Of a stretch of DNA of 64,000 bases, positions 32,706 to 53,991 are shown one piece after another (the stretch's first letter is position 1; each line of letters begins with the position of its first letter). The translations under genes and the position numbers were made by a program. Source of the DNA: Promethearchaeota archaeon (GTDB taxonomy: Archaea; Asgardarchaeota; Lokiarchaeia; Sigyniarchaeales; SOKP01); the NCBI GenBank assembly GCA_048939015.1, contig JBHLPW010000002.1:1-64000 (forward strand), written 5' to 3'. The notes below the pieces were generated by a model. The model searched no databases and was not told the origin of the DNA. It was given only the letters and a program-made list of their open reading frames with translations.

Positions 32706-35276
32706 TTAGTCACATTCTTCTGGTATAACTAAAGGCTGGGTTCCAGTTTGGTTGCCAATTAGTTTTAATATCTCAGGACCAAAAACATTAGATAATATTT
32801 CATTCATCTGTTTTCCGCCTAAATAGCTTTGACAGCCTAAATGAAGTTTATGAAAGGTATCACCTAGGTTTTCTTCAACTTCCTTAATGAATTCGATTAT
32901 TTTATCTTCTAATGTTGGTGATGGAGTCTCGTTCAGTAAAAAGACTACTTTAAATTCTTTATTGGTAAAAAATCCACCTGAAAGATGGCCAAGGCTAAAC
33001 TTTATTGATAAAATTTCGCCTACTTTCAATGCATGGCTCGCTATATGATCCAATGCTGTGAGAAAACCAGAAAAAATTGTATTATCAACATCTTCAGTAG
33101 TAAAATTTAATTCATATTGATTAGCACCACTTTCTCGATGTTGTACCAGTAATTTCTGAATATTTTCTATATCTGGATCGACTATAAAGGGTTTTGTTAA
33201 GAAATTATAGATATCCTCAGACGAGTTTTTTAGCACTTTGAACAATTTTTTGTTTATATAACCATACTCAGGGCCAGTTGGTTCTTCCCAACTTGGATCA
33301 TTTATCAATTCTGTTGCTGCTCGTCCGCTATTTTTCATTATACCTACTTGCGCTCCAAAAACGATTGCTAAATGAAATTCAAAGGCAGAAATATCTCCAC
33401 CGTTTATTCCAATAAGTTTAACTTTACTTGGTTCAATACCAGATTTCATTATATCATACCAATATTGAATCGGTTCTCTAATACTGAAATCTTTTCCTTC
33501 TGTAAAATGAACTGTACTATATCTTTTATCTAATTCAACGTGAGCAGGCATATGACTTGGAACATAACCAATTGTTTTTATTTGATCTGGGTAGTTATCT
33601 TGGATTTCTCCTACTGTACCGCTAATTCCTGCTTTGGTACCACCTGAAATTATTGTTCCTTCAAAATTCCTAAAAGCTTCAATTATATTAGTGTTAAATA
33701 TTTCTAAATTTCGTTCAATACGTTTATCTGTCCCCCCAGCAATAATTACAATAGGCTCATCAAGATTTCTTTCCATTTGTTTTATTTCGGAATCTAATGC
33801 CAAAGTGGACTCATTAATCATTTTATCAGTTTTCTCAACTATATTTGGATGAAATAAAATCCCCAATCGAAGAACTTGTCTGATAAAATCGATGCCTTTT
33901 AATTTATCTTTTATTAGTTTAAGGTTATTCAGAGTATTTAGAGTAGTTTCAATCATCCAAATATCAGAGCTGAATCTTATTCCTTTTAAATAATAATCTA
34001 AAGCTTCATTTACATTTCTAAGAAATAAGTTAAATAAACCTACGTCAAAAAAAGCCCATGGAGTATCGACCATTACTTCTATTTGTCTTAACCGTATTTT
34101 AATTGCTTTCTGAATCATATCATAATTTCTTTCAATATGAACTAAATCTCCTGTTTGCTGAATAACTAGGATTAAATAATTACCTAAAGGATATGGATCT
34201 CCTGGATTCACTTTTAATGCTTGTTTATAGCATTCCAAAGCTTTAGTATAATTATTTTGACTTTTATATGTACCTCCTAATGATGACCATCCATTTGAAT
34301 CAAAAGGATTTCTTTGAGCTGCCTCTATTAAAAATTTCTGACCCTGAATAAATGCTGGGCTTGAGGGATTTTTTTTGTATTTTTGATGATGAGATACACC
34401 CAAATCTCTTAAAACTTCTGCTACTTCTAATTCTGATACTTGTTTAAAGGCTTCAGTTTTCATCAATTCATTTAAAATTTCAATACTTTTATCCATATCG
34501 TTAATTGCCATCGCCAATCTCGCAATTCTATAACCAATTTTTAAATTCTCTTTGTCAGCTTCATAGACCATTTCTAATCTCTCTATTTCAGACTTTATTT
34601 TTTCATTAGACATATAAGTGATTATGGTTGATTCATAATCCCGCATTTTTTTCATGATTTTATCTAATGATTCATCTTCAATAGTCAATAATGATTTTAC
34701 TCGGGTGAGTTCTTGTTCATATGGTTTAGGGACTTTAAAGTCGTGTTGGTTAAAGACTTTGTATTGATTCGCAGCCCATCCATAACTCAAATATGTACAA
34801 ATTTGAATTTCTGCTTTTAAATTGAACATTTTCTCAGGGATATTAAGTTCAAGTCTATCATATATCTTTAAATCAGGCATCAACTGAACAGTGTAGGTCT
34901 GAAAATGTCCAAGAGAAGTACTTATCTCACTTAGTTCGGAGATTTCCAAACCATCTACAGTATCAAATAAAAAATTATCTCGAATTGCTTCACTAACAGC
35001 ATTTAATTCGTTGATATTTGGTAAAAGTATCCTAAATCCGATTAAATCAGTAATTTCTAGAAAAGGATTGGTAATTTTCTTTTCTGATTTAAAGAGTTTG
35101 TTTGCAAAACTAGAAATCTTCTTTACTCGCCCTTGTATGATGAATTCAGATGAATGACCTCTTACTATATTCTTGAGGATCTTCTTCATAATTTTATGAA
35201 ATTCTTTGTAAAATGGACGAATTTCTTTATATTTATTAATTTGCTCTTCGTATGGTTTGCGTTGTTCTAATTCCAT
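32706..35276 (-). CDS. Multidomain protein: RelA/SpoT-like nucleotidyltransferase + TPR + SLOG/LOG-like Rossmannoid + longin-like C-terminus
   Basis: QGRVKKISSF..K, ITDLIGFRI and AEIQICT...WA (RelA_SpoT); TPR WSSLGGTYKSQNNYTKALECYKQAL; IIAGG, ISGGTKAGI and GINGG...E (SLOG-like); IFSGFLTAL (longin-like). Confidence 0.7.
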   Translation of the reverse strand: MELEQRKPYEEQINKYKEIRPFYKEFHKIMKKILKNIVRGHSSEFIIQGRVKKISSFANKLFKSEKKITNPFLEITDLIGFRILLPNINELNAVSEAIRDNFLFDTVDGLEISELSEISTSLGHFQTYTVQLMPDLKIYDRLELNIPEKMFNLKAEIQICTYLSYGWAANQYKVFNQHDFKVPKPYEQELTRVKSLLTIEDESLDKIMKKMRDYESTIITYMSNEKIKSEIERLEMVYEADKENLKIGYRIARLAMAINDMDKSIEILNELMKTEAFKQVSELEVAEVLRDLGVSHHQKYKKNPSSPAFIQGQKFLIEAAQRNPFDSNGWSSLGGTYKSQNNYTKALECYKQALKVNPGDPYPLGNYLILVIQQTGDLVHIERNYDMIQKAIKIRLRQIEVMVDTPWAFFDVGLFNLFLRNVNEALDYYLKGIRFSSDIWMIETTLNTLNNLKLIKDKLKGIDFIRQVLRLGILFHPNIVEKTDKMINESTLALDSEIKQMERNLDEPIVIIAGGTDKRIERNLEIFNTNIIEAFRNFEGTIISGGTKAGISGTVGEIQDNYPDQIKTIGYVPSHMPAHVELDKRYSTVHFTEGKDFSIREPIQYWYDIMKSGIEPSKVKLIGINGGDISAFEFHLAIVFGAQVGIMKNSGRAATELINDPSWEEPTGPEYGYINKKLFKVLKNSSEDIYNFLTKPFIVDPDIENIQKLLVQHRESGANQYELNFTTEDVDNTIFSGFLTALDHIASHALKVGEILSIKFSLGHLSGGFFTNKEFKVVFLLNETPSPTLEDKIIEFIKEVEENLGDTFHKLHLGCQSYLGGKQMNEILSNVFGPEILKLIGNQTGTQPLVIPEECD

Positions 35277-35610: not shown

Positions 35611-35796
35611 GTGGAGATGATTAAAATACCAGAGTTAGTTTGTGATATTTGTGGTTCAAGAAAGGAAGTTCCTACATGTTGTGATACATCAATGATAGTT
35701 AAGGATGAATATTTATTATGTTGTTGCTCTGATGAGTGTGGATATCAACCAATTCCCGAATGTTGTGGTCAATTAATGAAATATATAGAACATTAA
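35611..35796 (+). CDS. Small Cys-rich protein with two desulforedoxin-like metal-binding motifs
   Basis: CDICG...PTCCDTSM and CSDECG...PECCGQLM. Confidence 0.65.
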   Translation: MEMIKIPELVCDICGSRKEVPTCCDTSMIVKDEYLLCCCSDECGYQPIPECCGQLMKYIEH

Positions 35797-35839: not shown

Positions 35840-37900
35840 TTAAGCTGTAGGAGAAACCTTTTTTTGTAAACCTCTTAAAATTTCTTCATATAATTTCTCT
35901 ATAAAACCCTCAAAATCATTCTCAGTATACTTCACATTTAACATCTGCCATAATAAAACAGGTATGTCATCCTCATTATCATATACTGGAATAATTTTTA
36001 ACATTCCCTTTTTTCTCATCTGGAATGCAGCTTGCCATTCATCTTTAACAGCATTAGATTTTACTGAATTTTTCGAGCAGAAAAGTACGAATATATCCGT
36101 ATTTTTTAGAGTATCTTCCATGAATTCTACGATGTTTTGTTTACTGTCAGCTTGCCAATACGAAACCTTTTTTATTTCTGGATATACTTCTAATTCTTTC
36201 ACTATATCTGATATTCGAAAATGCTCAGCATCCAAAGTAGAATAACTGAGAAATACTCTCTGGTTTTTAATGTCCTCAAGTGGTGATACTGGTGCTATTT
36301 CTTTTGCTTTTTGATTAAAGGCGATTGATTTTGATGCTGAAAAATATTCCGCGTCAATTTCCCGATTTTTAATCATTTCAAGAATTATTTGTTCGATTTG
36401 ACTTTCATCTTTAACATCACTCTTTTCAACAATATCCATGAGTTCAAGGCGGGCAAATTTAGTTCCATAGTTCAAGATAGTCTTTTTGATCTTTTTCTTG
36501 ATATTAAACTGGAAGTCCTTACAATAATCAATTTTTTCTTCAATTTTCTCTAGTAATTCAGAAAGTTCATATTCTCTTGCTAATTCTTTTATTTCAACTA
36601 GTTTTAAAATTGCGTCATAAAATTTACTATTTTCAATTAGATTTTCAATTTTAGATAATTTCTTTTGTATCTTTTTATCCATTTTAGCTTGTTCTTTATC
36701 TCTCTTAATTTCTTCTTCCAGTGTTTTACACTGTTCTATTTTTTCTTCTGCTTCTTTCAAAATTTCTGATAATTCATATTCTTGTGCTATTTGTTTAACT
36801 TTTTCTAATTCTCGAAATGCATTTCTTAGCTTATTATCTTCAATTAAATCTTCAATTTCAGATAACTGAGTTTGAAGTTCGTCTTTAACTCTCTGTTCTT
36901 CTAATTCTTCTCTTTTTTCTATTTTAAGTGTATTAACTTCCTTTAATTTTACCTGCGCCTTTTTCATTAATTCTATCAATCCAAAATTTCTTGCAGATGC
37001 TATTATATTATTTAGATTTGCAATAGCTTCATCATATCTATTTCCTCTAATTAATTCATCAATTTCTGACATTTTTTGCTGAAGACCAGTTTTAATTTTT
37101 CGTAGTCCCTCTTCTCTTTCCTCTTTGGAAATTTCTTTAAAGATAATAACAAAATCCCTTACTCGAGCATTTATCTCATGATTAGTGATCATATCGTCAA
37201 CAATGGTTTCAAGAGTTTCACGTTTTATTCCTGTTTTTGATATAATTTCGAAAAAAGGCAGTTCCTTTGATTGAAATTGCATGGTTTTGATAAAATCAAT
37301 AGTTTTTCCTTCAACTAATTGTTTATCCTCCCAATCAGTACCAACTACTACTTCCTGTTTAATTTCGATAGGTTCAACTTCTAATACCTTCCGTTTCATA
37401 GGTTTAGCCTTTACTTCTTTTACTTTCGTCGATTTAACACGTCGAAATATTAATTCTCCTTCCTTACTTACAACAGCAACAACATTTGTTCCAATTAAAC
37501 CAATCCCAAAAATCAAACATAAATAGAATCCAGCTGTAAAGGTTATAGGATTTACAATTACTTGATTTAATGAGATTATAGAAGGATAGATCATTAAGCT
37601 AATTAAAATTAAAAGAAAACCAATTCCACCGAATAGGAGTGCCTTTTTTTTTCTTTCTGGGGTCAATAGTATAATTGAGATAATGGCAAGTGCAACACCT
37701 ACCCACCCCCCAAAAATTAAAGCAATATAACCCTCATATTCTGTCGTATAACCTTCCCATACAGGAGTTTCGGGTGGTGGTGGATATGGAGGGTGATGTT
37801 CTAAATAATATGGAAGAAATGCTGAAACCAATACAATTATAATTAAGATTCCATAAATTAATCTTATAAAATTGAATTTCTGTATTCTAATTTCTGTCAT
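35840..37900 (-). CDS. 4-TM membrane protein with winged-helix/PCI-like segments, three helical repeats and a C-terminal TIR domain
   Basis: N-terminal TM helices; repeats LSEIEDLIEDNKL.NA..EL..VK..A.EYEL.E.L..AEEKI..CK; TIR VFLSYS...FVLFCSKNSVKSNAVKDEW...IIPV. Confidence 0.82.
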   Translation of the reverse strand: MTEIRIQKFNFIRLIYGILIIIVLVSAFLPYYLEHHPPYPPPPETPVWEGYTTEYEGYIALIFGGWVGVALAIISIILLTPERKKKALLFGGIGFLLILISLMIYPSIISLNQVIVNPITFTAGFYLCLIFGIGLIGTNVVAVVSKEGELIFRRVKSTKVKEVKAKPMKRKVLEVEPIEIKQEVVVGTDWEDKQLVEGKTIDFIKTMQFQSKELPFFEIISKTGIKRETLETIVDDMITNHEINARVRDFVIIFKEISKEEREEGLRKIKTGLQQKMSEIDELIRGNRYDEAIANLNNIIASARNFGLIELMKKAQVKLKEVNTLKIEKREELEEQRVKDELQTQLSEIEDLIEDNKLRNAFRELEKVKQIAQEYELSEILKEAEEKIEQCKTLEEEIKRDKEQAKMDKKIQKKLSKIENLIENSKFYDAILKLVEIKELAREYELSELLEKIEEKIDYCKDFQFNIKKKIKKTILNYGTKFARLELMDIVEKSDVKDESQIEQIILEMIKNREIDAEYFSASKSIAFNQKAKEIAPVSPLEDIKNQRVFLSYSTLDAEHFRISDIVKELEVYPEIKKVSYWQADSKQNIVEFMEDTLKNTDIFVLFCSKNSVKSNAVKDEWQAAFQMRKKGMLKIIPVYDNEDDIPVLLWQMLNVKYTENDFEGFIEKLYEEILRGLQKKVSPTA

Positions 37901-38137: not shown

Positions 38138-41100
38138 TTACTTTATTTTTTTCTTAAGTTGCCATGAAATTGATATTAAACTGAAAATCATTATTAAATA
38201 AAGCATATTAATATTATAAGTTGGTATAGCGGGAGATTCTGATTTCTTAATAGAAACCTCAGCATATCCTTCATGACCCAATGTATCAGTAGCATAAAAT
38301 CGTAGAGTGTATTCTCCAGGAGGTAATGCATTCCAATATTCTTGGATAATATCTCCAGTAAGGGTACAAGTTTCATTTATTTCTCCACCATCTAATGTAT
38401 ACCATATCTCATCTAAATTACCTTCATTTATAGTTAATTCAAAACTTGGAGCTCTATCTGTAAATGCTTGATTGTCTTCTGGAGAATTAATCGTGATCTC
38501 TGGTGAAAGTACATCTTTCCTCACAGTTACTTCTTCCCAATCAGAATTCCCTACCGAATCATTCGCATAAAATCTTATAGTAACAGTCCCATTGCCAAAA
38601 TTATCCCATTCCGTTTGGTCAATGTTTCCCATAGGTTCAGTAATAAGTAAGATTGTTACTCCTCCGTCCAAAGTATACCACATAATGTTCAAGTTTGGTT
38701 CTACAATAATTAAAGAAAATGAAGGAGTAGTGCTTCCGAAGAGATAATTTGAGATCGGTGTGGTGATTGTAATCTCTGGTGGAAGCACATCTTTTCTTAC
38801 TAACACATCTTCCCATCCAACATTACCAGCTGTATCATTCGCATAAAATCTAATAGTAACCGTTCCGTTTCCAAATTTACCCCATTCTATTTGGTCAATA
38901 TTACCCGTAGGTTCAGTAATAAGTACAATTGTTAACCCACCATCCAGGGTATACCACATAGTATCTAAATTAGGTTCAATAACTGTTATGTTAAAGTATG
39001 GTTCAGAACTTCCGAAAAGGTCATATAGAAGTGGTGAATTGATTGTAATGTTAGGATTGATAATATCAGCTATACAAGAAATTGTAAAATACCGAATTAA
39101 TGAAGATCTCATATATCCAACTGTATCATTTCCAAACACTTGAATGGTATGTAATCCATCTGAAGGCAATGGAATTGTAGTATTTCCTAAGATAGTCTTT
39201 ATTGTTTGAGAATCTAGTGAATATCCTTGCCAATCAAGAGCAATTTCACTCTCATAACTAAGTAATAGCCCTTCATTTAAATTATCTCCAATTTTATAAT
39301 TTGGATCCCAGGAATACCCTATCGCATCTACATATCTATTATGGCTATATGGCATTGACCAGCTTAACATATAGGTGGGTGCTATATTATTAATAAAGCT
39401 CAATGGTCCAATTTTAGTCCCATTAATATATAAATTCCATTGATATTGAGACAAACCCATATAACCTCCATTTGTAGCTTCAAAATCCATTCTAATATGA
39501 TACCACTTATTATTTATAACAGGAAGACCAGTATCATGCCAACCGGTATTATCTAGATATAAGAATTTATCTCCTACTCCGATTGCTACACAACAAATGT
39601 CTACAGTACCATTATGAAGTCTGATTTGAAATGAATGAGAAGAAGTGTAAGTAGTAATTTCATTTGCAGCCCAACATTCAAAAGTTCCATTACTCTGTGG
39701 TCCTGTAGTGAATTGCTGGAAAAAAATCGCCCCTCCTTCATAGCAATTGTATACCTTCTTATGACCATTAAATTCATCTATGACCTTCCAATTATCTTCA
39801 GAATCCAAAAAATTGAGAGGATCATTATTATTATGAGTATCTTCAAATCCATAGGTAGCTGGATAATAGCCACTCATCGGATCAGTATAGGTTTTGTTTT
39901 CAGGAGTGATTATATCTATAGGGAAATATTGAACGGTGAAATACCTAATCTGTGAATAATATTCTAATCCTAGTGAATCATTTCCAAATACTTGAACTGA
40001 ATGTACTCCATTCTCTGGTATCGGAATTGTTGTGTTTCCATAAATAGTTTTAGAGATGTGATCATCCAAAGAATACCCTTGCCAATCAAGAACGATTCTA
40101 TTTTTATAACTTAGCAATAAACCTTCATCCATATTAGCTCCAATTTGATAATTAGAATCCCATGAATACCCAATAGCATCAAAATACATATAATAATTCA
40201 TTTCTGTACTCGCAGTTGATATCCAAAATAGTGTTGCTTGAGGTTCATTATTTTCAAATTTAAAGGGTCCATATTTAGAGCCATTAATATGTATAAAACA
40301 GGAGTATTGATTCAATCCTTTATAATTCCCTGTTGAACATTCAAAATCAACACTTAAATGATACCAATTATTTGAAGAGGCAGGACACAATGAGTAATCC
40401 GTTCCATTAGTATATCGAAATTCATTATTCCTAATCTCAACAGCGAAAAGCGAATCAGTTACTACATCCAAATTCGCCAATCGAAAGGCTCCCGCCTGGG
40501 AAGCATCTGATATCCTCCACCAAAATTCTACTGTTCCATAAACTTGTACTGAGGAAAAGTTATTCCAAAGTTTTACAAGTCCAGCCCCAGCATTATTATT
40601 ATCATAGAGTTCTAAAACCTTTTGATGTCCATCAATTCCAGAAATGACTTGAACAGATGTATCTGAAGCTTCTAAAATTGTCCATCCTTCTGGATAAGTG
40701 CCATCCTCATCATTTTCAAATCCATGAGTTGCTAGGTAATATCCATCCATTGGTTGAGTATATGTTTGATTAACTGGAGTGACTAATTTAATCGAGGAAA
40801 CCTCAAAATGTTGTAGTCGTGATTGATATAACTCTCCTAATGAATCATTTCCAAATACCCGAATAAGATGTTCCCCATCTACTGGCATTTTTATAGTTGA
40901 ATTTCCTAGTATAGTTTTTATAGGCTGTAAATCAAGTGAAAATCCTTGCCAATCAAAGACAGTAGAGTTTGTAAAACTAAGTAATAACCCTTCGTTTAAA
41001 TTATCTCCAACATTATAGCCGGGATCCCATGAATAACCTATAGCGTCGACGTAATATGTAAGATTATTACTCGCACTAGAATAAATCTGAAAATTATGTA

Positions 41101-44100
41101 CATCAACTAGATCACCATCCCTAAAACCATAATCATCAGCTATCAAGGTATTATCGATATAGATATCGAATGTATCAGTCGAACAATTAAATTCAACACT
41201 AAAATGATACCATTTATCATTAATACAGGGAATAAGATCAGACCAAGATGTAGAATCATAACATTGAAACATATTTCCATCTGTTCTAATGACTACTGCT
41301 AGCTCACTGATAGATCCTCTTATTCTAATATATATATTCTCAGCTGAATCATTTGTACATATCCAAAATTCAACTACTCCATTTGATTTAGCGGAGGCAA
41401 AACTATCTAAAATATTAGCCGAAGGTGAAGAATTAGTGTCAATAAATTCCACAACTTTTTTATGATTTATGTATTCTTCAATTACTTGTACTGAAATGCC
41501 CTTCGCTACATCTGATACTAATCTTGAAGGTCTTGATCCAATTGAATCTTCTTCAAACCCAAAAGTTGCTGGATAATATCCACTCATAGGTTCATTGTAT
41601 ACTTTATCTTCAGGTGTTTTAATCTCTATTCCATAATCAACTTTAAAATATCTTAATTCAGATTCGTATAATATCCCTCGTGAATCCTCACCAAACAATT
41701 GAATTTGATGCACTCCTTCATCCAAATATGGAATGGTAGTATTTCCAAATATTGTTTTATTTATTTGTCCCTCTAATGAATAACCTAACCAAGTTAATTC
41801 GGTATTCTGAATAGTACTAATCAGTAATCCATCATTTGCATTATCGCCAATATTATAGTTTGAATCCCATGAATACCCAATAGCATCGGCATAGCATATA
41901 TCTCCATTAAAATGATAGAAATTTTGACCACTTGGAGTATTATTATATCGGAAACTAAAGGGTCCAAATTGTTCGTTATCTATAGCTACTTGCCAATACC
42001 ATTGTGATAAGCCCATATATCCTCCACTAGAGGTTTCAAAATCAATTCTCATATGATACCATGTGTTATCCAAAGTAGATTTTCCTAAATTATACATACC
42101 ACCAGTATGATTATTATAAACAAATTTTTCGTTATCTATTCCAATAGAAAAAGCTTGTCCTTGCCCAATTTGATATATCTGTGATGATATGGCATAAGAT
42201 GCATCTTCAATTGCCCACCAAAATTCAATAGTACCATGTTCTTCTGGTGTTTCAAATATATGATTTATCGAAATATCTCCAGGCCCAGGATCCTCCATTT
42301 TTAAAACCTTATTATGACCTTGAAATTCATCGATTATTTCACAAACACCATAAGTGTCGACCCACCCAAAAGGATCACTTGCATCTTGGTCATTCTCGAA
42401 TCCAAAAGTGGCAGGATAATATCCGTATGTTGGTGCAAAATAAGTTTTGTTTTCAGGTGTGCTAATATTAAAGAATGAACCTGTATCTACTGAAAAGTAC
42501 CTTAATTCAGAATTATAGATACTTCCTAACGTATCATTACCAATTACCTGAATATGGTGACTTCCATCTTTAGGAAAGGGGATTGAAGTATTTCCTAATA
42601 TTGGTATTATTGATTGACTGTCCAGAGAATATCCTTGCCAATCTAGATTAGTGCTATTCTCATAACTTAGTAGTAATCCTTCATTGAAATTATCACCAAC
42701 ATTATATCCTATATCCCATGAGTAACTTATTGCATCAGCCCAGAATTCAATAGCTTGAGTATTACCGGTATATAACTCTACTTCATAAGCATCTCCAGTG
42801 AAAGAATAATTAGCTATAGGTGATTCAAAATAGAGAGATCCGTCAGCTTGATAAATCCTAAATTTATATTTATTTGCATCTAAATCTTTATAGGTTCCAT
42901 CTCCAGAAAAATCTATACTCACTCGAAACCATTCATTTATAGAATTTAAACCTGTATTAATTTCGGTAGTACCATTTTTATAATACCACACATTATCATA
43001 GCTATATACATCAACTATATACTGATCGAGCGAATTTTTTATAAAAAAATGAGTGTGGTAATTATGACTATTATAGTATATCCAATATTCAACTGTTCCA
43101 CTAGTAATATTTTCATAGAATATTTGTGCAGGATATAGGTGAATACCACCTCCGGGATCGTTCAGATACAGAACATTATTGTGCCCATCTTTAGAATCAA
43201 CTACGTATACTCTTCCTTGATAAGAACCATATCCTTCTTCTGACCATGCATTTGGAAAATCCCCACTTTTATCATTCTCAAATCCATAGGTGGCAGGATA
43301 ATAGCCACTCATTGGACAAGTATAGATCTTATCTTCAGGTGTGATTAAATTTAAATGATGAACTGAAAAGCAACGAATATTAGATTGAAAATTAGTCCCT
43401 AATGAATTATTTCCATATACCCGAATTGAATGTGGTCCATCCTCTGGCAATGGAATCGTAGCATTCCCTAAAATTGTTCTATTAATCTGTCCATCTAAAG
43501 AATAGCCCATCCAATCAAGATTGGTATTATTTTCATAACTTAGTAATAATCCTTCATTGAAATTATCACCAACATTATATCCTATATCCCATGAGTAACT
43601 TATTGCATCAGCCCAGAATTCAATAGCTTGAGTATTACCGGTATATAACTCTACTTCATAAGCATCTCCAGTGAAAGAATAATTAGCTATAGGTGATTCA
43701 AAATAGAGAGATCCGTCAGCTTGATAAATCCTAAATTTATATTTATTTGCATCTAAATCTTTATAGGTTCCATCTCCAGAAAAATCTATACTCACTCGAA
43801 ACCATTCATTTATAGAATTTAAACCTGTATTAATTTCGGTAGTACCATTTTTATAATACCACACATTATCATAGCTATATACATCAACTATATACTGATC
43901 GAGCGAATTTTTTATAAAAAAATGAGTGTGGTAATTATGACTATTATAGTATATCCAATATTCAACTGTTCCACTAGTAATATTTTCATAGAATATTTGT
44001 GCAGGATATAGGTGAATACCACCTCCGGGATCGTTCAGATACAGAACATTATTGTGCCCATCTTTAGAATCAACTACGTATACTCTTCCTTGATAAGAAC

Positions 44101-45250
44101 CATATCCTTCTTCTGACCATGCATTTGGAAAATCCCCACTTTTATCATTCTCAAACCCATAAGTTCCGAAATAATACCCATTCATTGGTTTTGAATAAGT
44201 TTTCGCTTCTGGTGTTATTATATCTATTGGAAAATCTACTGTGAAATATCTAATTTCAGATTGGTGATTTATTCCTAATTGATCCATCCCAAAGATATGA
44301 ATTGTATGAAGCCCATCTTCTGGCATTCTAATTGTCGTGTTACCAAGAATAGGTCTTTTATTTTGACTATCTAAAGAATAACTTTTTCTATCAAGTGTGC
44401 TATTAGAATCAAAACTAATTAATAAGCCTTCATATAGATTATCTCCCACTTGATAGTTAGGATCCCAAGAATATCCTACGGCATCATAAAAAGTCGAATA
44501 CCCAGATTCAGTAGTCCTTGTATAAATTTGAAAACTACCAAGGGATTGGTGGTCGTGAGTACCTATCATTGGATAAGGACCATATTTTTCCCCATCGATA
44601 TATACTTGCCATTTCTCCTCCGGTAACCCACTATAGTTTCCCTCAGTACATTCAAAATCAATATGAATGTGATACCACGTATTATCTGAAGCAATTTTTC
44701 CCACATCATACCATAGAAAGCCAGGGCTATAATATCTTCTAAATTTATCCTCCCGTATTGAGATACAAACCGCATAGCTACCTCCAGGAGGCTCATATAT
44801 TACTGCATCGGCTGGGTCAGTTGCATCTGTAACTCTCCACCAAAATTCAATAGATCCATATGATTGAGTTTTTCCAAATGTTTGTATAGCTCGAGTTTCA
44901 TAACTAGTATCTGTATCTTGTAATTCTACTACTTTCTTATGACCATCTAGATCACCTATTATATCTGCTGCGCCGCCTTTTCTATCTATTTTCCAACCAT
45001 TCGGGTCAGTATTTTCTCTATCATTTTCAAATCCAAAAGTTGCAGGATAATATCCTTCCATAGCATCTGTATATGTTTTATTTTGCGGAGTTACAATTGT
45101 TATACTATTGCTACTTAATTTTAAATCTACTTTTTCATCAGAAACTTTATTTAATCTATTGATTCCAAAATTATTCATAAAAGCATAACTACATAACCCA
45201 ACTAAAAGGATTAAACTTAAGGAGATTAATCTTATTCTTATCTTTTTCAA
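38138..45250 (-). CDS. Giant cell-surface glycoprotein (2370 aa): 7 Ig-like/LamG-like modules, 3 Ig-like stalk units, Loki-CTERM-type anchor
   Basis: Signal peptide; seven GYYPATxGFE...WYHxxIDF...YSWDPNYxxGDN units of about 290 aa; C-terminal PAIPTY-TM-KKKIK. Confidence 0.82.
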   Translation of the reverse strand: MKKIRIRLISLSLILLVGLCSYAFMNNFGINRLNKVSDEKVDLKLSSNSITIVTPQNKTYTDAMEGYYPATFGFENDRENTDPNGWKIDRKGGAADIIGDLDGHKKVVELQDTDTSYETRAIQTFGKTQSYGSIEFWWRVTDATDPADAVIYEPPGGSYAVCISIREDKFRRYYSPGFLWYDVGKIASDNTWYHIHIDFECTEGNYSGLPEEKWQVYIDGEKYGPYPMIGTHDHQSLGSFQIYTRTTESGYSTFYDAVGYSWDPNYQVGDNLYEGLLISFDSNSTLDRKSYSLDSQNKRPILGNTTIRMPEDGLHTIHIFGMDQLGINHQSEIRYFTVDFPIDIITPEAKTYSKPMNGYYFGTYGFENDKSGDFPNAWSEEGYGSYQGRVYVVDSKDGHNNVLYLNDPGGGIHLYPAQIFYENITSGTVEYWIYYNSHNYHTHFFIKNSLDQYIVDVYSYDNVWYYKNGTTEINTGLNSINEWFRVSIDFSGDGTYKDLDANKYKFRIYQADGSLYFESPIANYSFTGDAYEVELYTGNTQAIEFWADAISYSWDIGYNVGDNFNEGLLLSYENNTNLDWMGYSLDGQINRTILGNATIPLPEDGPHSIRVYGNNSLGTNFQSNIRCFSVHHLNLITPEDKIYTCPMSGYYPATYGFENDKSGDFPNAWSEEGYGSYQGRVYVVDSKDGHNNVLYLNDPGGGIHLYPAQIFYENITSGTVEYWIYYNSHNYHTHFFIKNSLDQYIVDVYSYDNVWYYKNGTTEINTGLNSINEWFRVSIDFSGDGTYKDLDANKYKFRIYQADGSLYFESPIANYSFTGDAYEVELYTGNTQAIEFWADAISYSWDIGYNVGDNFNEGLLLSYENSTNLDWQGYSLDSQSIIPILGNTSIPFPKDGSHHIQVIGNDTLGSIYNSELRYFSVDTGSFFNISTPENKTYFAPTYGYYPATFGFENDQDASDPFGWVDTYGVCEIIDEFQGHNKVLKMEDPGPGDISINHIFETPEEHGTIEFWWAIEDASYAISSQIYQIGQGQAFSIGIDNEKFVYNNHTGGMYNLGKSTLDNTWYHMRIDFETSSGGYMGLSQWYWQVAIDNEQFGPFSFRYNNTPSGQNFYHFNGDICYADAIGYSWDSNYNIGDNANDGLLISTIQNTELTWLGYSLEGQINKTIFGNTTIPYLDEGVHQIQLFGEDSRGILYESELRYFKVDYGIEIKTPEDKVYNEPMSGYYPATFGFEEDSIGSRPSRLVSDVAKGISVQVIEEYINHKKVVEFIDTNSSPSANILDSFASAKSNGVVEFWICTNDSAENIYIRIRGSISELAVVIRTDGNMFQCYDSTSWSDLIPCINDKWYHFSVEFNCSTDTFDIYIDNTLIADDYGFRDGDLVDVHNFQIYSSASNNLTYYVDAIGYSWDPGYNVGDNLNEGLLLSFTNSTVFDWQGFSLDLQPIKTILGNSTIKMPVDGEHLIRVFGNDSLGELYQSRLQHFEVSSIKLVTPVNQTYTQPMDGYYLATHGFENDEDGTYPEGWTILEASDTSVQVISGIDGHQKVLELYDNNNAGAGLVKLWNNFSSVQVYGTVEFWWRISDASQAGAFRLANLDVVTDSLFAVEIRNNEFRYTNGTDYSLCPASSNNWYHLSVDFECSTGNYKGLNQYSCFIHINGSKYGPFKFENNEPQATLFWISTASTEMNYYMYFDAIGYSWDSNYQIGANMDEGLLLSYKNRIVLDWQGYSLDDHISKTIYGNTTIPIPENGVHSVQVFGNDSLGLEYYSQIRYFTVQYFPIDIITPENKTYTDPMSGYYPATYGFEDTHNNNDPLNFLDSEDNWKVIDEFNGHKKVYNCYEGGAIFFQQFTTGPQSNGTFECWAANEITTYTSSHSFQIRLHNGTVDICCVAIGVGDKFLYLDNTGWHDTGLPVINNKWYHIRMDFEATNGGYMGLSQYQWNLYINGTKIGPLSFINNIAPTYMLSWSMPYSHNRYVDAIGYSWDPNYKIGDNLNEGLLLSYESEIALDWQGYSLDSQTIKTILGNTTIPLPSDGLHTIQVFGNDTVGYMRSSLIRYFTISCIADIINPNITINSPLLYDLFGSSEPYFNITVIEPNLDTMWYTLDGGLTIVLITEPTGNIDQIEWGKFGNGTVTIRFYANDTAGNVGWEDVLVRKDVLPPEITITTPISNYLFGSTTPSFSLIIVEPNLNIMWYTLDGGVTILLITEPMGNIDQTEWDNFGNGTVTIRFYANDSVGNSDWEEVTVRKDVLSPEITINSPEDNQAFTDRAPSFELTINEGNLDEIWYTLDGGEINETCTLTGDIIQEYWNALPPGEYTLRFYATDTLGHEGYAEVSIKKSESPAIPTYNINMLYLIMIFSLISISWQLKKKIK
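42674..44155. repeat. Identical intragenic direct repeat of about 609 bp (42674-43282 and 43547-44155, offset 873 bp)
   Basis: Both copies read identically between the flanking mismatches at 42673/43546 and 43283/44156; the peptide FENDKSGDFPNAWSEEG...GDNFNEGL occurs twice. Confidence 0.9.
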
Positions 45251-45403: not shown

Positions 45404-48400
45404 TTATTTTATTTTTTTCTTAAGTTGCCAAATCAAAGATATTGTTCCGATCATCATTATCAGAAAAAGTATAATATTATGATAACTAGATATAGCGGGA
45501 GATTCTGTCTTCTTAATAATAACCTCAGCATATCCTTCATGACCCAATGTATCAGTAGCATAAAATCTTAGAGTGTATTCTCCAGGAGGTAATGCATTCC
45601 AATATGATTGGTCAATTTGTCCAGAAAATGTACAAGTTTCATTGATTAATCCACCATCTAATGTGTACCATATAGTATCTAAATTACCTTCAATTATATC
45701 TAAATCAAAGTTTGGAGCTCTATCTGTGAATATTTGATTGTCTCCTGGGAGATTAATCGTGATCTCTGGTGAAAGTACATCTTTCCTCACAGTTACTTCC
45801 TCCCAATTAGAATTCCCTACTGTATCATTTGCATAAAACCTAATAGTAACCGTTCCGTTTCCAAACTTATCCCATTCCGTTTGGTCAATGTTTCCTATAA
45901 GTCCTATCATAGGTATAATTGTTACTCCTCCATCTAAAGTATACCACATAGTGTTCAAATTTGGTTCTAGAATAGTTGCATCAAATGAAGGAGCAGTACT
46001 TTCGAAGAGATAATTTGAGATCGGTGTAGTGATTGTAATCTCTGGTGGAAGCACATCTTTTCTCAATAATACTTCTTCCCATCCAACATTACCAGCCGTA
46101 TCATTTGCATAAAATCTAATTGTTACCGTTCCGTTTCCAAATTTACCCCATTCTATTTGGTCAATGTTTCCCGTGGGTTCAGTAATAAGAATAATTGTTA
46201 ACCCACCATCCAGGGTATACCACATAGTATCCAAATTAGGTTCAATAACTGTTATATTAAAGTATGGTTCAGTACTTCCGAAAAGGTCATATAGAAGTGG
46301 TGAATTGATGGTAATGTTAGGATCAACAATATCACCTGCGGTTGAAATTGTAAAATACCGAATTAATGAAGACCTCATATATCCCCAGGTATCATTTCCA
46401 AATACTTGAATAGTGTGTACTCCATCAGATGGCATAGGAATTGTTGTATTTCCCAGAATAGTTATAATTGGTTGAGAGTCGAGTGAATATCCTTGCCAAT
46501 CAAGAGCATAATTGCTTTGATAACTAAGAAGTAAGCTCTCATTTATATTATCTCCAACATTGTAATTTGGATCCCATGAAAATCCAACAGCGTCAATATA
46601 AAAACTATAATCTACATGATATATACTACTTGCTATACTAAAGTATTTCATCATTGTATTTGGATTCCGATAATCATAACCAGAAGAACCACCGTAGGTT
46701 GTTCCATTCACAGTAATCCAAAATTTATCTATAGTTGAATTGAATGTAATTGAGATATGATACCATATATTACTTAGAATTGGAGAGATGTTATAATAAG
46801 CGTCCGTTCTATAAGTAAGATATCCACTGTCAACACGTAGATATATTCCATCAGATGAATCTGTTTCAAAGAGGTTAATACTAGTTCGCATGCTTGAATT
46901 TTCAATTAAATAATAAAATTCGATTGTCCCATTATCTCTATTTGTCAAGTTAATTTTCATTTGAGTTTGTTCTGAATATACTGTGTCTGTTAGGTTGACT
47001 ACTTTTCTGTGATTATAATAACTATCTATTACCTCACACATACCTCCAAAAGCAACATCTTGATACCATCCATTTGGGAATGCTTTTTCTTCATCATTTT
47101 CAAATCCATACGTAGCATGGTAATATCCGCTCATAGGGTTAGTATATGTAATATTATAAGGCGTTATTATATTTATTGGGAAATATTGAACAGTAAAATG
47201 CCTAAGAGAGGAATAATAATTATTTCCAATAGAATCATTTCCAAATACTTGAATTTTATGTACTCCATTTGAAGGCATAACAAATGTAGTATTACCGAAA
47301 ATTGTTCTGTTAATTTGTCCATCTAAGGAATACCATTGCGAATCAATATTAGTACTATTTTCATAACCTAGTAACAACCCTTCATTAAGGTTATCTCCAA
47401 TATTATAATTAGGATCCCAGGAATAACCAACTGCATCAAAATAAGAATTGTATCCAAGTCCATAACTATAAGTATGCAAGTGAAATTCATCTAATTGTTC
47501 ATCAGCACCAAAAAGATATGGTCCATAACCAACTCCATTTATATATACGTAGAATTCATTTTCATTAAGGCCATGATATCCTCCTGTAGTATGTTCAAAA
47601 TCAATCCTAATATGATACCATGTATTTATCAATGGAGTTGCGGCTCCAATAATCGGAGTGTCACTACCATTATGATGTACATGCCATTCAGCAGGACTTC
47701 CACCAAACATCCTTACTCCAAACAAGATATTACCATTTCCCATCCCCGTGATCTGGCTTCTATCACCATCACTTCCTAAATCATCTTGTTGTACCCAAAC
47801 CTCAATTGTACCGTTATCTTTATTATTTATAAGATTATATATTCTTGTTGGATTTCCACTTCCACCTTGATTATCAAATAATCGAAGGACTTTTTTATGT
47901 CCATCTAGTTCTGAAATTACTTCCGCTTCGGGATTTTCAATTTGAATTACCCAATCTTTTGGATCAGCATTGTTTTCATCATTCTCAAATCCATAGGTAG
48001 CTGGAAAGTAACCACTCATCGGATTAGTATAGGTTTTATTTTCAGGAGTGAATATTATAAAAGGTGAGACTGTGAAATATCTAATCTCAGATTTATATAA
48101 AATCTCTCTGAAATCCATACCAAAGAGTTGAATTTTATTACGTTGTTTGCTATAATTACTAAAAGGGATTACTTTATTTCCGAATATTGTTCTATTAGAC
48201 TGTCCATTTAATGAATAACTAGTCCATTTTAGATCAGTGGTTTTAGTAAAATCCAATAATATACCTTCATCCTCGTTATCACCAATATTATAATTAGGAT
48301 CCCATGAATACCCGATTGCATCTATATAAGAGTAAAAATTCGAATCAGTACCAGTTGTGCCAAAATAAATTGTGTCCATGGCGCTTGGTGCTCCATAAAA

Positions 48401-51400
48401 GGCATATCCTGCGCCATTTGTTTTATTGCCATCTATCCATAAATGCCATTCTCCTGCTGTACAGTTCCATTCAATTCTAAGATGATACCATTGATCCATA
48501 TTGTAAGTCATTATATCTTGAGGCGCAGTAGTGTAATAACGAATCCAACCATTATCATCGAAGTATAAGTAAACTGCTTTCGTTTCCACACCATCATAAA
48601 TGAAAACTTTTGTTCTTGTTGTATTATCCCCACACCGAACATATAATTCAATAGTTCCTGTATTCTGATCAGCGAAATTGTGGTAAACTTCCACCATATC
48701 AGTTGAAGAAGTATCATGTAATTCCAAAACTTCATTATGACCATCAATATCAGATAAAATATTGACTGTTCCTCCCTTTTCACCTATTTTCCACCCAACT
48801 GGAACTGAACTATCTGAAAATTGCACAAGATCGTCTCTTTCAAATCCAAAGGTTGCTGGATAATATCCATGCATTACACTCTCATATGTTTTGTTTTCTG
48901 GAGTGATAATATTAAAGAAATTACCAGTATTTACAGAAAAGTATCGATTATCTGAATTATAGATATTCCCTAAAGTATCGTTACTAAATACTTGAATATG
49001 ATGAGATCCATCAGAAGGCATCGGAATTGTTGTATTTCCCAGAATAGTTATAATTGGTTGAGAGTCGAATGAATATCCTTGCCAATCAAGATTGGTAGTA
49101 TTTTCATAACTTAGTAACAATCCTTCATTTAAATTGTCTCCGATGTTATAATTGGGATCCCAAGAAAAACTCAACGCATCTAAATAGATATGATAATTGT
49201 AATTAGATATGCTTGTCCAATATAGAATTGTATCTAGATGTGTGCAATTAGTTAAAAAGGGTAAAGATGCTGATAATGTATTGTCTACCGTATATCTTAA
49301 TGTATATTGAGATAGACCGGTATAATTTCCACCTGTACATTCAAAATCTATTCTTATATGATGCCAATTATTGACCAACGGAGTCCCTAATGCCGGTATT
49401 ATTGTCCATGACGGATTTAACCCTTTCCAAGCCGAATCCATAAGTTGAAAACCTGCAAAAACACTTAAGGAGCTATCTTGAAATTCAAATTGAAAAGGTC
49501 TGTTAATATCAGTACTTCTAACCCAATATTCCATTGTACCATAGGTTTGGGGTATTGATAAGTTATTCCTCATAGACACATGACCATAAGTGATAGGATC
49601 ATCTAAATCTAAGATTTTTTTATGTCCATCCAACTCAGAAATAACTTTTAAATTACAACCCGACGCAGTAAGATTAATAAAATCTCTTGGAAGCGTCCCA
49701 TCTTTTTCACTCTCAAAACCATAAGTAGCAGGATAATATCCACTCATTGGAGTCGTATACGCTTTATCTTCAGGAGTAACAATACTTATATGATGAGTTG
49801 AAAAATATCGTGTAGTAGATTGGTATTGATTGTTCAAAGAGTCGTTTCCATATACCCGAATGAAATGGTTTCCATCTTCTGGAAGAGATAATGTAGTATT
49901 TCCGAAAATCCTTTTGAATGGTTGATTATCTAAAGAATACCATGTCTTATTTAAGCTAGTACTATTTTTATAATAAAGAAGTAATCCTTCTTTCATATTT
50001 TCTCCCACGTTATAATTAGGATCCCATGAATATCCTACAGCATCAAAGTAAGCATAATAATTTGGATCAGCCGCTGAGTTACCGGTTGTTATTCTGATTT
50101 TATTTGCGTAAGTAGATGGATTCTGCATTATAAAGTCGGAATTGCTTTGGTTTCCATTCAGATATACCCTAAATGTATTGGCTGCTAATCCCATATACCC
50201 TCCAGATCCACATTCAAAATCGATTCTAAGGTGATACCATTGATTTCCATTAATTGCACCAAATTCTGTCAAATCGATAGAGTCTGTATTGTTTACCGCA
50301 ACTAGATATCCTGCTGTATTAAATCTCACTGTTAAAATTGGTACAGCATCATAATAAGGTTGAACCCAAAGTGGATAGCCTGATATTTTCACGAGAACCC
50401 AAAGTTCAACAGTGCCATTAGATTGATTTGCATATGAATTATAGGTATCGGGATTTCCCCCTCCATTATTATCAAATAGTTCATACACTCTCTCATGTCC
50501 GTTGTATGAATCGACTAGATAAGAGTGGGTGGTTGATACCACATCATGCGTCCAATTTTTAGCATCAGCTCCAGGAAGATCACTCTCAAATCCATATGTA
50601 GCTGGATAATATCCACTCATAGGTTCGCCATAGACTTTAGCTTCTGGAGTTATTATTTCAATCGGAAAATCAACAGTAAAATATGTAATATTTGATTGAT
50701 ACTCTTGTTCATACTGATCAACTCCAAAAATTTGCATGCTATGAAGTCCATTTTCTGGCATTGTAATTATAGTATCTCCTTTTATAGCCCTCTTCAGTTG
50801 ATTATCTAAAGAGTAGCTCATTGTATGAAGAAGAACTTCTGTATCAAAACTAATAACTAAACCTTCTTCTGAATTATCCCCAATTTCATAATTTGGATCC
50901 CATGAATAGCCAATCGCATCAGCATAAGCGATATCTCCAGTATTAGAATAAAAAGCAATAGTATCAGGAACCTTATTATTCGCGAAAGTATATGGTCCAT
51001 AGGACTCACCATCAATATACAATTGCCATCTCCATTCTGACAAACCCATATATTTGCCTTCAGTAGTCTCAAAATCTATTCTTATATGATACCAAGTGTT
51101 ATCTAAAGCCGTCTTTCCAACATCATACCATGTACTATTGTAATATTCGAATTTATCACTTGTAATTCTAATACAAAAACAATTTCCAACTGCAAGATTA
51201 TTTATCTGATTTTGAATTGAAAGAGAAGCATCTCTTTCTGCCAGCCAATATTCAATAGTACCAAAATCTGGTGGTGATTCCAAAGTATCGCCTATTCCAA
51301 TTTGTCCCGCTCCAGGATCAACCATTTCTAAGACTTTTTTATGTCCTTGAAATTCTTGAATAATTTGTGAACTATCACCTCCATCATACCAATCCTCTGG

Positions 51401-52410: not shown

Positions 52411-53991
52411 TTACCAAATTAGATTAGCAATTATATCTTTAGTTGTTTCTGCTTGTTTTTTATTCAGTATTTTTCGAATACGCAGATCATTGATAGCATC
52501 ATCTAGGCGTGTGTCTAGGTTTTTCATTTCCATTAAATTATTTTTATCTCCTTGAGTCTCTACAAGTTCGATCATTGAATTTTCTTTATTCATTAAATCT
52601 CTTAATTTCTGTCTAAAACTAGCTTTCACTTTAGTTCTTACTACTTTCCCTCCATCAATTAAAATGGGTAATACGGGAGCTCTTTCAGTCGTTCGATTTG
52701 TATTGGGGTCCGTGAAGAAAAAGATATAGATTGGGATACCTACTATGACATTTTGTGACTTTAATTCAAGAGTATAGTTATTGAAGAAAGCCTGTACATT
52801 TGTCATTTCACTATCTTTAATCGATTCAATGTTATCCAAACAAGCTTGTTTTTCTGTTTTAATTTGTGCTAATACATCCTCAGCAGATGTTAAATCTTTA
52901 CTTAAGTCACTATGTTTTGCCTCAATTTGTTTTTCGACTTCAGATTTCTTACGTTCTAACTCACGTAGTTTTTGCTGTTTAGTTTTCTCTAGATCTGAGA
53001 TTTCACGTTGTACATTTCTCCGTAATTGTGCTATCTCATTTTTATACCTTGCTATAGAGTCTCCTAATTCACGATATTTAACATCGATATCTTTTAATCC
53101 CTCTTCTACTAAAAAGAGATCTCGTTGGTTAATAGCGTTTTTCAAACCATCCACGCTTTGTTTGAGTGTACTTAGATGATTATTAAGTTCTCCGGTTTTG
53201 TCATTGATTTTGTATTTTCCAAGCTTTACGAGTTCTTCTGGAGATTTTTCTATTTCTCGTTCTTTTTCTGCTTGTATTTCTTTATTCAATATTGCAAGTT
53301 GTTTCTCTTCTTCTCCTGTATCTACTTTTGTATCTCTAATTTTATCAGCTTCTTTGCTTCCTTTTTCGATCCATCTCTCGCATAATTTTATTATAATATC
53401 GCTATAAGAATCTAACGTTTTAACATCTGTTTGTGAAACGAATTCATTAATTTCTGGTACTATTTTAATCTGATTTACACTTTTTGAAATAGATCCTCCT
53501 TCCAACATAAAATAGGGAGTAGAGTGAGCCCCTAGATTATATTGATTAAGAAAAAAGTTTTGAAAATATCCTACTTCATTTGTATTAAACAAAGCTTCTT
53601 GAATAACTATACCACGCTTGAAGTTTTTGGCTCTCTTTAGATAGGAATTATTATAAGATTGTAAAGAATTCAAAAAAGACACAGGATCTGCGCCCTTCAC
53701 AACATTTTCAGGTCGAGGGGGCATCTGAGCGAATTGTCCAACACTTAATTTTTCTTGTTTATTTAAAAGATAACTACAGACACAAGCTCTTGTATCGCTT
53801 AAGGGAATTAAGCGAACAGGCCAAAATGCTGTAGTTATTTTTGAGATTTTCCCTAGCTTTTTTAATGATTTGCCATAAATACCTACACATTCAATCAAAC
53901 CCATGGCAAGTTCGTTAAGTAGGCTTGCTTGACTTCGAGCGGGAGTTATTTCACCCATATTAATTAAAAAAGGTGTTACTTTATCAACCAT
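52411..53991 (-). CDS. Hypothetical coiled-coil protein with globular N- and C-terminal regions
   Basis: Long E/K/Q-rich heptad region at about aa 200-400, flanked by beta-rich FWPVRLIP and IPIYIFFF segments. Confidence 0.7.
   Translation of the reverse strand: MVDKVTPFLINMGEITPARSQASLLNELAMGLIECVGIYGKSLKKLGKISKITTAFWPVRLIPLSDTRACVCSYLLNKQEKLSVGQFAQMPPRPENVVKGADPVSFLNSLQSYNNSYLKRAKNFKRGIVIQEALFNTNEVGYFQNFFLNQYNLGAHSTPYFMLEGGSISKSVNQIKIVPEINEFVSQTDVKTLDSYSDIIIKLCERWIEKGSKEADKIRDTKVDTGEEEKQLAILNKEIQAEKEREIEKSPEELVKLGKYKINDKTGELNNHLSTLKQSVDGLKNAINQRDLFLVEEGLKDIDVKYRELGDSIARYKNEIAQLRRNVQREISDLEKTKQQKLRELERKKSEVEKQIEAKHSDLSKDLTSAEDVLAQIKTEKQACLDNIESIKDSEMTNVQAFFNNYTLELKSQNVIVGIPIYIFFFTDPNTNRTTERAPVLPILIDGGKVVRTKVKASFRQKLRDLMNKENSMIELVETQGDKNNLMEMKNLDTRLDDAINDLRIRKILNKKQAETTKDIIANLIW

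Follow-up and report, generated by a model that had tools for sequence, protein, structure and literature searches.

What does a RelA/SpoT-like domain do in an archaeal protein that also carries a SLOG domain, and why does the gene for this protein lie beside genes for TIR proteins? These questions are raised by a locus of a Promethearchaeota archaeon, contained in a 64,000-nucleotide stretch of DNA that we analysed as a whole and refer to as the window (positions 1 to 64,000 of contig JBHLPW010000002.1, assembly GCA_048939015.1). The gene in question, P0001, occupies positions 32706-35276 of the minus strand. Its open reading frame (ORF) is intact, with an ATG start and no internal stops, and encodes 856 amino acids for which no membrane segments are predicted. 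A first-pass annotation, made from the letters alone, had described the product as a RelA/SpoT-like, TPR, SLOG-like and longin-like protein, a candidate nucleotide-signalling hub that could sense a TIR-made nucleotide or make its own messenger. The four-part architecture is confirmed, by Pfam for the first three parts and by fold for the tail, and each of the motifs listed by the annotation (RVK, DLIGFR, EIQ, GHFQTY, WAANQY, SGGTxxG and NGG...E) is found at its expected position. We conclude that the most probable role of P0001 is to receive, in the cytosol, the signal of a nucleotide pathway that resembles Thoeris and has not been described, because P0001 and its relatives adjoin genes of the NAD-cleaving TIR type. 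The view that we favour, if with some reserve, is a relay of the Thoeris kind in which membrane TIR receptors would make an ADP-ribose-type product and the SLOG domain of P0001 would sense it.

The domain on which this view turns is the SLOG domain, of LSDAT/TRPM type by both Pfam and fold, which spans residues 508-661 (33294-33755, minus strand). It matches LSDAT_prok ('SLOG in TRPM, prokaryote', PF18171) with 29.0 bits (cut-off 25.4), and displays the motifs IIAGGT, SGGTKAG (544-550), INGGD (624-628) followed by E633, and FGAQV. In an alignment of 27 homologues, reaching down to 35% identity, the glycines G514, G546, G550, G626 and G627 are invariant, E633 is present in at least 90% of sequences, and the glycine loops IIAGGT, SGGTKAG and INGG, as well as FGAQV, show no or almost no variation. 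An AlphaFold2 model of residues 497-845 (predicted local distance difference test, pLDDT, 85.5; predicted template modelling score, pTM, 0.77) is made up of two domains, of which the first is Rossmann-like. When this model was submitted to Foldseek, ranks 1-43 were all N-terminal domains of TRPM2, 3, 4, 7 and 8 (best E 4.6e-7), ADP-ribose-bound entries of TRPM2 among them. A search of the PDB sequences with the SLOG family profile found no chain, and the likeness to TRPM proteins thus rests on Pfam and on fold.

Which proteins could provide a ligand for such a domain? The upstream neighbour of P0001 (35840-37900, minus strand) encodes a protein of 686 amino acids whose N-terminal part has four membrane segments, followed by coiled coils and, at the C-terminus, a TIR_2 domain (nucleotides 35894-36256) that includes Glu621. 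Further upstream on the same strand lies the gene for a receptor-like protein (54098-57793): its ectodomain is a NosD beta-helix, a single membrane segment spans 931-949, and its TIR_2 domain, a member of the same subfamily, is cytoplasmic. A second receptor-like protein (59023-63963, minus strand) carries a solute-binding-like domain and a NosD beta-helix, one membrane segment at 1358-1376 and a TIR_2 domain, again cytoplasmic, in a frame that is open to the window edge. The adjacent TIR domains form one tight subfamily, mounted on very different N-terminal parts. The glutamate of their 'EWQAA' motif (Glu621 of the 686-residue protein) is invariant in the subfamily and aligns with the glutamate of WCLDEL in a plant TIR and of WCWDEL in Cat1; the residue at this position is established as the catalytic glutamate of TIR domains. 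P0001's own genome contains 11 TIR_2 matches and one RelA-SLOG-longin protein.

Is the proximity of P0001 to a TIR gene more than coincidence? We determined adjacency from a TIR profile scan of all fetched loci together with their gene tables. In L002, L009, L011, L012, L013, L014, L018, L019 and L020, the gene immediately upstream, on the same strand, encodes a TIR protein, and a TIR fragment is found there in L015; the five TIR matches of L013 comprise three full-length genes, one gene cut at the locus edge and one fragment further upstream. The TIR gene is one gene away in L003, L004 and L022. In L021 (47% identity) the two genes converge tail-to-tail, and in L007 (38% identity), where ThiF/JAB/E2-like genes stand alongside, they diverge head-to-head. 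No usable upstream flank is available for L010, L016, L017 and L023. Among relatives of at least 47% identity with enough flank, a gene of the TIR subfamily adjoins in all but two, and in a sample of 201 genomes of the phylum a TIR gene adjoins each orthologue (5/5). TIR_2 matches number only 2-13 in these genomes of 3.4-4.9 Mb, and we estimate roughly that a gene picked at random in P0001's own genome would have a chance of about 1-2% of a TIR gene within 3 kb. The association with TIR genes thus recurs widely and in varied arrangements. Its independent support is provided by the rearranged and distant loci.

How widespread is the protein itself? About 45 clusters of equal length and architecture occur in metagenome-assembled genomes of Lokiarchaeota/Promethearchaeota, at 85-35% identity. 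Their distribution is patchy: in the phylum sample, full orthologues are present in 5 of 40 genomes of the same family and, at the level of the genus, in 3 of 11 genomes including its own, a fourth having the tail fragment alone. More distant relatives (29-49% identity), those of the RyR or NUDIX types being mostly bacterial, join RelA_SpoT and SLOG domains to a RyR tail, in some cases (P0044, P0045 and P0072) together with NUDIX as a further fused domain, and their homology to P0001 spans the RelA, linker and SLOG regions. Compared with these relatives, the clade of P0001 has exchanged the tail for a longin fold, has lost the acceptor motifs and has no NUDIX partner.

It is among these relatives that the link to NAD+ chemistry reappears in other guises. 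L006 (53% identity) has an adjacent DUF4062-STAND-TPR gene, plus a canonical paralogue and a NUDIX gene. In L008 (29% identity), which is bacterial, genes for DUF4062-STAND-WD40, NUDIX and RelA_SpoT-SLOG-RyR proteins stand in tight series. The contig of P0066 shows TIR-WD40, NUDIX, the family gene and then DUF4062; L028 has two TIR_2 genes, a NUDIX gene and then the family gene; and in L029 and L030 a NUDIX gene is directly upstream of the family gene. A NUDIX gene immediately precedes the RyR-type relatives in all loci concerned (5/5). NUDIX enzymes are known to hydrolyse both ADP-ribose and (p)ppGpp. According to two 2026 preprints, DUF4062 is a TIR-like NADase that yields ADP-ribose and nicotinamide; this statement rests on the preprints, since our own profile-profile comparison of the TIR alignment with two DUF4062 N-termini, for which the alignments were too shallow, found nothing. 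In L029 (7531-14356), the NUDIX and RelA_SpoT-SLOG-RyR genes are followed in series by genes for a small HD_4 hydrolase and a TPR-S-cyclase-like protein, next to which, on the opposite strand, lies a prokaryotic STING gene. The HD_4 gene directly downstream fits alarmone synthesis in the RyR-type branch. In the best-supported model, a TIR or DUF4062 protein would make a nucleotide of ADP-ribose type to which the TRPM-type SLOG domain would bind; in the canonical relatives, binding would control a RelA/SpoT synthetase, with NUDIX or HD_4 enzymes for reset.

Does P0001 itself retain a working synthetase? Its RelA_SpoT domain (residues 49-169; 34770-35132, minus strand) matches PF04607 with 36.5 bits against a cut-off of 27, and the closest PDB sequence is that of RelP (6fgk, E 7e-7). 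The characteristic motifs read RVKK (50-53), DLIGFR (77-82) and EIQICT (156-161). In a HMMER alignment to RelP, the ATP-donor and Mg site is complete, with R50, K52, S56, K60, D77, G80, R82, E156 and Q158, the counterparts of R64, K66, S70, K74, D90, G93, R95, E145 and Q147 in FaRel2 (PMC11782079). D77 and T161 are invariant in 27/27 homologues, and K52 and E156 are retained in at least 25 of the 27. Together with the full donor set, this retention suggests selection on nucleotide and Mg binding at least. The acceptor site has a different appearance. Its G-loop reads GHFQTY (123-128) instead of GYxSxH or GY(R/K)SxH, so that the base-stacking tyrosine is gone, and this loop is variable across the Lokiarchaeial clade of about 855 residues. 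WAANQY (167-172) replaces WAxxxH, with Y172, F175 and N176 at the positions of WAxxxHxxxYK; the H..YK motif is lost throughout the clade. The arginine of EIQxRT is replaced by C160: the 'CT' seen by the first-pass annotation is indeed present in P0001, but it is peculiar to P0001 and a few relatives, and 19 of the 27 family members have arginine here. P0031 and P0032 are additionally without R50, G80, R82 and E156. The N-terminal domain is altogether the least conserved part of the protein, with a mean identity to P0001 of 0.51-0.53 versus 0.62-0.65 for the TPR region, the SLOG domain and the tail.

The alternative raised by the annotation, that P0001 makes a messenger of its own, has become less likely in the sense of (p)ppGpp for the clade of about 855 residues, because the G-loop and H..YK motifs are lost and the host genome (4.86 Mb, 95% complete) has no match to HD_4, the SpoT-type hydrolase. 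A canonical stringent response was likewise considered and rejected, P0001 being the single RelA_SpoT match of this genome, which is without an HD_4 match, and having a degenerate acceptor site. The RyR- and NUDIX-type relatives, on the other hand, keep GYRSxH or GYLSxH, EIQVRT and WA..H...YK, and a Lokiarchaeial paralogue of 669 residues, which has no tail, keeps GYRTxS, EIQVRT and WA..H...YK. Because canonical motifs are kept in both, the ancestral enzyme looks like a real synthetase, and the 855-residue clade would have remodelled or lost acceptor binding.

Several observations weigh against a role of P0001 as receiver of a TIR-derived signal. The annotation had placed the gene just downstream of the TIR genes on the same strand. 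It is indeed downstream and on the minus strand like them, but 563 bp separate it from the nearest TIR gene, and a small conserved gene, read from the other strand, intervenes; the two genes are therefore probably separate transcription units and not co-transcribed. Much of the adjacency among relatives of 63-85% identity may be inherited synteny, because these relatives share the small intervening gene and the metabolic flanks. L005 (55% identity) has no TIR gene within 10 kb. The locus of P0001 is flanked by metabolic genes and is no defence island, and PADLOC calls no Thoeris system in it, reporting weak ThsB-like matches (E about 5e-4) and no ThsA or effector match for P0001. The clade-wide degeneracy of the acceptor loop and the losses in P0031 and P0032 mean that the enzyme may be inert. 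Some sampled genomes, furthermore, possess the TIR subfamily and lack a RelA-SLOG-longin protein. This last point also bears on the term 'hub', which is unproven: a ratio of 11 TIR_2 matches to one such protein fits it, whereas genomes with TIR receptors and without the protein do not. The proposal that P0001 could sense a TIR-made nucleotide is nevertheless well supported by context, through the identity of the SLOG domain and the recurrent TIR linkage, the ligand itself being our deduction. None of the outcomes that the annotation had named as refuting its proposal was borne out as far as computation can show, and its interpretation as a whole is supported in part.

The regions that flank the SLOG domain are likely candidates for interaction modules. 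A helical/TPR region (residues about 226-495; 33792-34601, minus strand) includes one strong TPR at 329-359, a TPR_1 match of 42.4 bits in Pfam. The tail (residues about 705-840; 32757-33164, minus strand) has a longin fold, as judged from an AlphaFold2 model and structural alignment, and in this the annotation was right. A model of residues 686-845 (pLDDT 82) has, by DSSP, the order strand-strand-helix-strand-strand-strand-helix-helix, which is the longin order. The best match by VIA-align is sedlin (2j3w, Z 11.7, 126 residues aligned, root-mean-square deviation 3.0), followed by synbindin (10.6), VAMP7 (10.2), Sec22 (10.0) and SRX (9.9), with roadblock proteins lower, at about 9.4. When 27 tails were scanned against Pfam, no family reached E 0.1; one Sedlin_N match had E 0.11. 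The tail represents a broad, unannotated domain family, its profile matching 583 representative clusters among 1.84 billion proteins. This family is lineage-expanded, with several copies per genome, and occurs in proteins of about 440, about 760 and 1000-2100 residues without Pfam domains, for example at G000:C10:47093-47428 and G000:C64:14131-14538, and in three genes of about 760 residues in tandem at L026:2420-9545. No GTPase partner for the tail is conserved in the neighbourhoods of the family, and 60 other proteins with the tail domain are without GTPase domains; an Arf-like gene lies 6 kb from the family gene in L005 only.

How might these parts work together? From domains, residue conservation and gene neighbourhood we infer a ligand, a direction of signalling, a catalytic step and a cellular outcome, as follows. 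The sensor of the receptors, made of either a beta-helix or four membrane segments, would lie on the outer side or within the membrane, and their TIR domain, with glutamate at the catalytic position, would lie inside the cell; the 686-residue protein with four membrane segments is the proposed signal generator. Once triggered, such receptors would cleave NAD+ and release an ADP-ribose-type nucleotide. The LSDAT-type SLOG domain, a fold that binds ADP-ribose in TRPM2, would then bind this nucleotide, and the TPR scaffold would relay the signal to the RelA/SpoT-like domain with its complete ATP/Mg donor site and remodelled acceptor site. That domain could either pyrophosphorylate a non-canonical acceptor from ATP or serve as an ATP-dependent switch. 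The longin tail is predicted to pack against the SLOG domain and would probably mediate assembly. In its most far-reaching form, the scheme becomes an outside-in pathway of Toll-like-receptor topology in Asgard archaea: beta-helix TIR receptors would generate an NAD-derived messenger, read by the SLOG-longin part, upon which the RelA domain would pyrophosphorylate a new acceptor, such as the ADP-ribose-type signal or tRNA. We regard this complete version as doubtful; if it were true, it would imply a new second messenger or modification and would mean that TIR signalling was already coupled to a longin-type module before eukaryotes arose. A complex prediction for full-length P0001 with the neighbouring TIR domain, run without controls, gave a score of 0.00 and no answer, and speaks neither for nor against binding.

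The comparison with characterised systems is instructive. In Thoeris, the TIR product 3'cADPR binds a SLOG domain and activates the effector (preprint 10.64898/2025.12.03.692087). The P0001 locus resembles type I Thoeris (a ThsB TIR protein and a ThsA SIR2-SLOG protein) in that a TIR gene with the catalytic-position glutamate adjoins a gene for a SLOG domain joined to an enzymatic domain, and it shares its logic with type III Thoeris (several TIRs and a SLOG effector) as well. Unlike in Thoeris, the fused enzyme is RelA/SpoT-like instead of SIR2, the SLOG domain belongs to the LSDAT/TRPM clade, the TIR proteins sit in the membrane as receptors whose ectodomains are large, and the host is an Asgard archaeon; the genes lie neither in one operon nor in a defence island. 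TRPM2 is a channel gated by ADP-ribose. Its MHR1/2 region, an LSDAT SLOG, is the best structural match of the P0001 SLOG domain, and its pairing of LSDAT SLOG with the NUDIX domain NUDT9-H recurs in the relatives of P0001, as a fusion or as an adjacent gene. Unlike TRPM2, P0001 has no channel and its clade no NUDIX partner, and the likeness in sequence is at the level of the Pfam profile only. The small alarmone synthetases and toxSAS (RelP/RelQ, FaRel2 and CapRel) share with P0001 the RelA_SpoT fold and the complete donor set. ToxSAS are growth-arrest effectors in defence, and P0001 weakly matches the PADLOC candidate PDC-S33. It differs from these synthetases in lacking the G-loop tyrosine and H..YK, in having cysteine for the EIQxRT arginine, and in being longer by about 680 residues, which form the TPR, SLOG and longin regions; no antitoxin or hydrolase partner is found in its genome. 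A further comparison is with the mostly bacterial pairs of NUDIX and RelA_SpoT-SLOG-RyR genes and with the RelA_SpoT-TPR-SLOG paralogue of Lokiarchaeia, which likewise stand beside TIR or DUF4062 genes but, unlike P0001, have canonical motifs, a RyR tail or none, and NUDIX upstream.

Could the same findings be explained without a nucleotide relay that ends in catalysis? P0001 might be a pseudoenzyme scaffold, its RelA-like domain non-catalytic, its SLOG domain (and perhaps the donor site, for ATP) sensing, and its output a set of protein contacts made by the TPR and longin regions. Loss of the G-loop tyrosine, of the EIQxRT arginine (in P0001) and of H..YK is what such a scaffold would lead one to expect, as are the weak conservation of the N-terminal domain and the missing core residues of P0031 and P0032. 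A paralogue from the same genus manages with TPR, SLOG and longin parts and no RelA domain, and the tail belongs to a lineage-expanded family of many otherwise unannotated proteins. Against it stand D77 and T161, preserved without exception, K52 and E156, nearly so, and the full donor set of P0001; besides, the neighbourhoods yielded no candidate partner of the longin tail. On balance, we hold the scaffold to be rather unlikely. The converse possibility is that chemistry takes place at both ends: the SLOG domain would cleave or remodel the TIR product in the manner of LOG, and the RelA-like domain would pyrophosphorylate it, so that P0001 matures the signal. The SLOG superfamily does include enzymes such as LOG (established knowledge; PMC6459960), the glycine motifs and E633 are conserved, and an intact donor site beside a remodelled acceptor site is what one would expect for a new acceptor. 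The nearest structures, however, are non-enzymatic, ligand-binding TRPM domains and not LOG, and in characterised Thoeris the SLOG domain is a sensor (preprint 10.64898/2025.12.03.692087), which leaves an enzymatic SLOG domain with a small likelihood, below one in ten by our reckoning.

Two further explanations dispense with the TIR messenger. P0001 could be an autonomous metabolic sensor of NAD+/ADP-ribose or ATP level that makes an alarmone-like messenger, the TIR gene being next to it by inherited synteny. Its place among metabolic genes, the lack of a shared operon with the TIR gene, the locus L005 without a TIR neighbour and its status as sole RelA_SpoT match of the genome agree with this. 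Synteny does not readily account for adjacency to TIR or DUF4062 genes at 84, 68, 53, 47, 38 and 29% identity, in varied orientations and with varied TIR architectures; nor would a core regulator be expected to be patchy even within a genus. The acceptor site is degenerate, too, and an HD_4 hydrolase is absent. We consider such a sensor improbable. Finally, TIR proteins might recruit P0001 physically, as in animal Toll-like receptor signalling, with no small-molecule messenger. The absence of a TIR domain for homotypic contact in P0001, the invariant catalytic-position glutamate of the TIR subfamily, the strictly conserved nucleotide-binding motifs of the SLOG domain and the NUDIX and NADase genes beside distant relatives all speak against direct recruitment, and we assign it very little probability, even though the TIR proteins have a receptor-like topology and P0001 offers TPR and longin interaction modules.

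If P0001 is the receiver of a TIR-derived nucleotide, TIR-to-SLOG signalling, the logic of Thoeris, would extend to Asgard archaea. Its output module would be of the RelA/SpoT family, which is not among the Thoeris effectors in the literature searched, and its sensors would be membrane receptors in the style of Toll-like receptors instead of cytosolic phage sensors. TIR, a TRPM-type ADP-ribose-binding domain and a longin fold, which have eukaryotic counterparts, would be joined in one testable archaeal pathway. If the RelA-like domain turned out to act on a novel acceptor, this would add a nucleotide messenger or a modification of RNA that is new as well. The bacterial NUDIX and RelA_SpoT-SLOG-RyR relatives offer easier experimental entry points. 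The literature on TIR systems and Asgard defence, as searched here, yielded no account of an effector that joins RelA/SpoT to SLOG, the founding SLOG/LSDAT paper (Burroughs et al. 2015) lying outside that search.

Two of the fetched loci contain gene sets that deserve mention in their own right. On the minus strand of L027 (1565-8968), from the same genus, a TPR gene (NPHP3-like, cut at the locus edge), a RelA_SpoT-TPR-S-SLOG gene of 669 residues, a paralogue of 700 residues and a gene for an LRR protein form a cluster. The 700-residue paralogue is TPR-SLOG-longin, without a RelA domain and with a degenerate SGGT loop, and the LRR protein has a weakly TIR-like C-terminus. In L007 (3217-7931, minus strand), the TIR_2 gene stands first in a series that continues with ThiF (E1-like), Prok-JAB and UFC1-like (E2-like) genes, and thereby a TIR gene is linked to a ubiquitin-like conjugation set.

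What else accompanies P0001 in the window? Between it and the TIR gene, the small opposite-strand gene (35611-35796, plus strand) encodes a product of 59-61 residues with about 13 cysteines in CxxC, CC, CCC and CC motifs. Its counterparts in 13 other loci are 63-85% identical; it belongs to no Pfam family, with only weak rubredoxin or zinc-ribbon leads. We rejected it as a component of the system: 48 of 61 family genomes have it, a far larger share than have P0001, and it is not beside the target in G157. The methyltransferase gene downstream of P0001 (31933-32640) was also rejected as a partner, its adjacency not being conserved. A coiled-coil protein of 526 residues without Pfam family (52411-53991, minus strand) keeps company with the NosD-TIR gene and the target: copies of 65-78% identity lie beside both in L003, L004, L022, L012 and L019, and copies truncated by the locus edge occur in L017 and L020. 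Promethearchaeota and Bathyarchaeota have unannotated clusters that resemble it. Whether this protein belongs to the system is uncertain. Between the NosD-TIR/526-residue genes and the gene for the four-segment TIR protein lie two giant paralogous surface-type proteins on the minus strand (38138-45250, 2370 residues; 45404-52234, 2276 residues), with Big_13, PKD and CBM matches and hydrophobic N- and C-terminal segments; the pair is missing from the otherwise similar locus L003. The remaining genes of the window are metabolic. The 324-residue NosD ORF (57851-58825) and the 1231-residue NosD-TIR ORF (54098-57793) are in the same frame, one TAG apart (57851-57853, minus strand), and could be a single receptor gene with an in-frame stop, through pseudogene formation, sequencing error or read-through.

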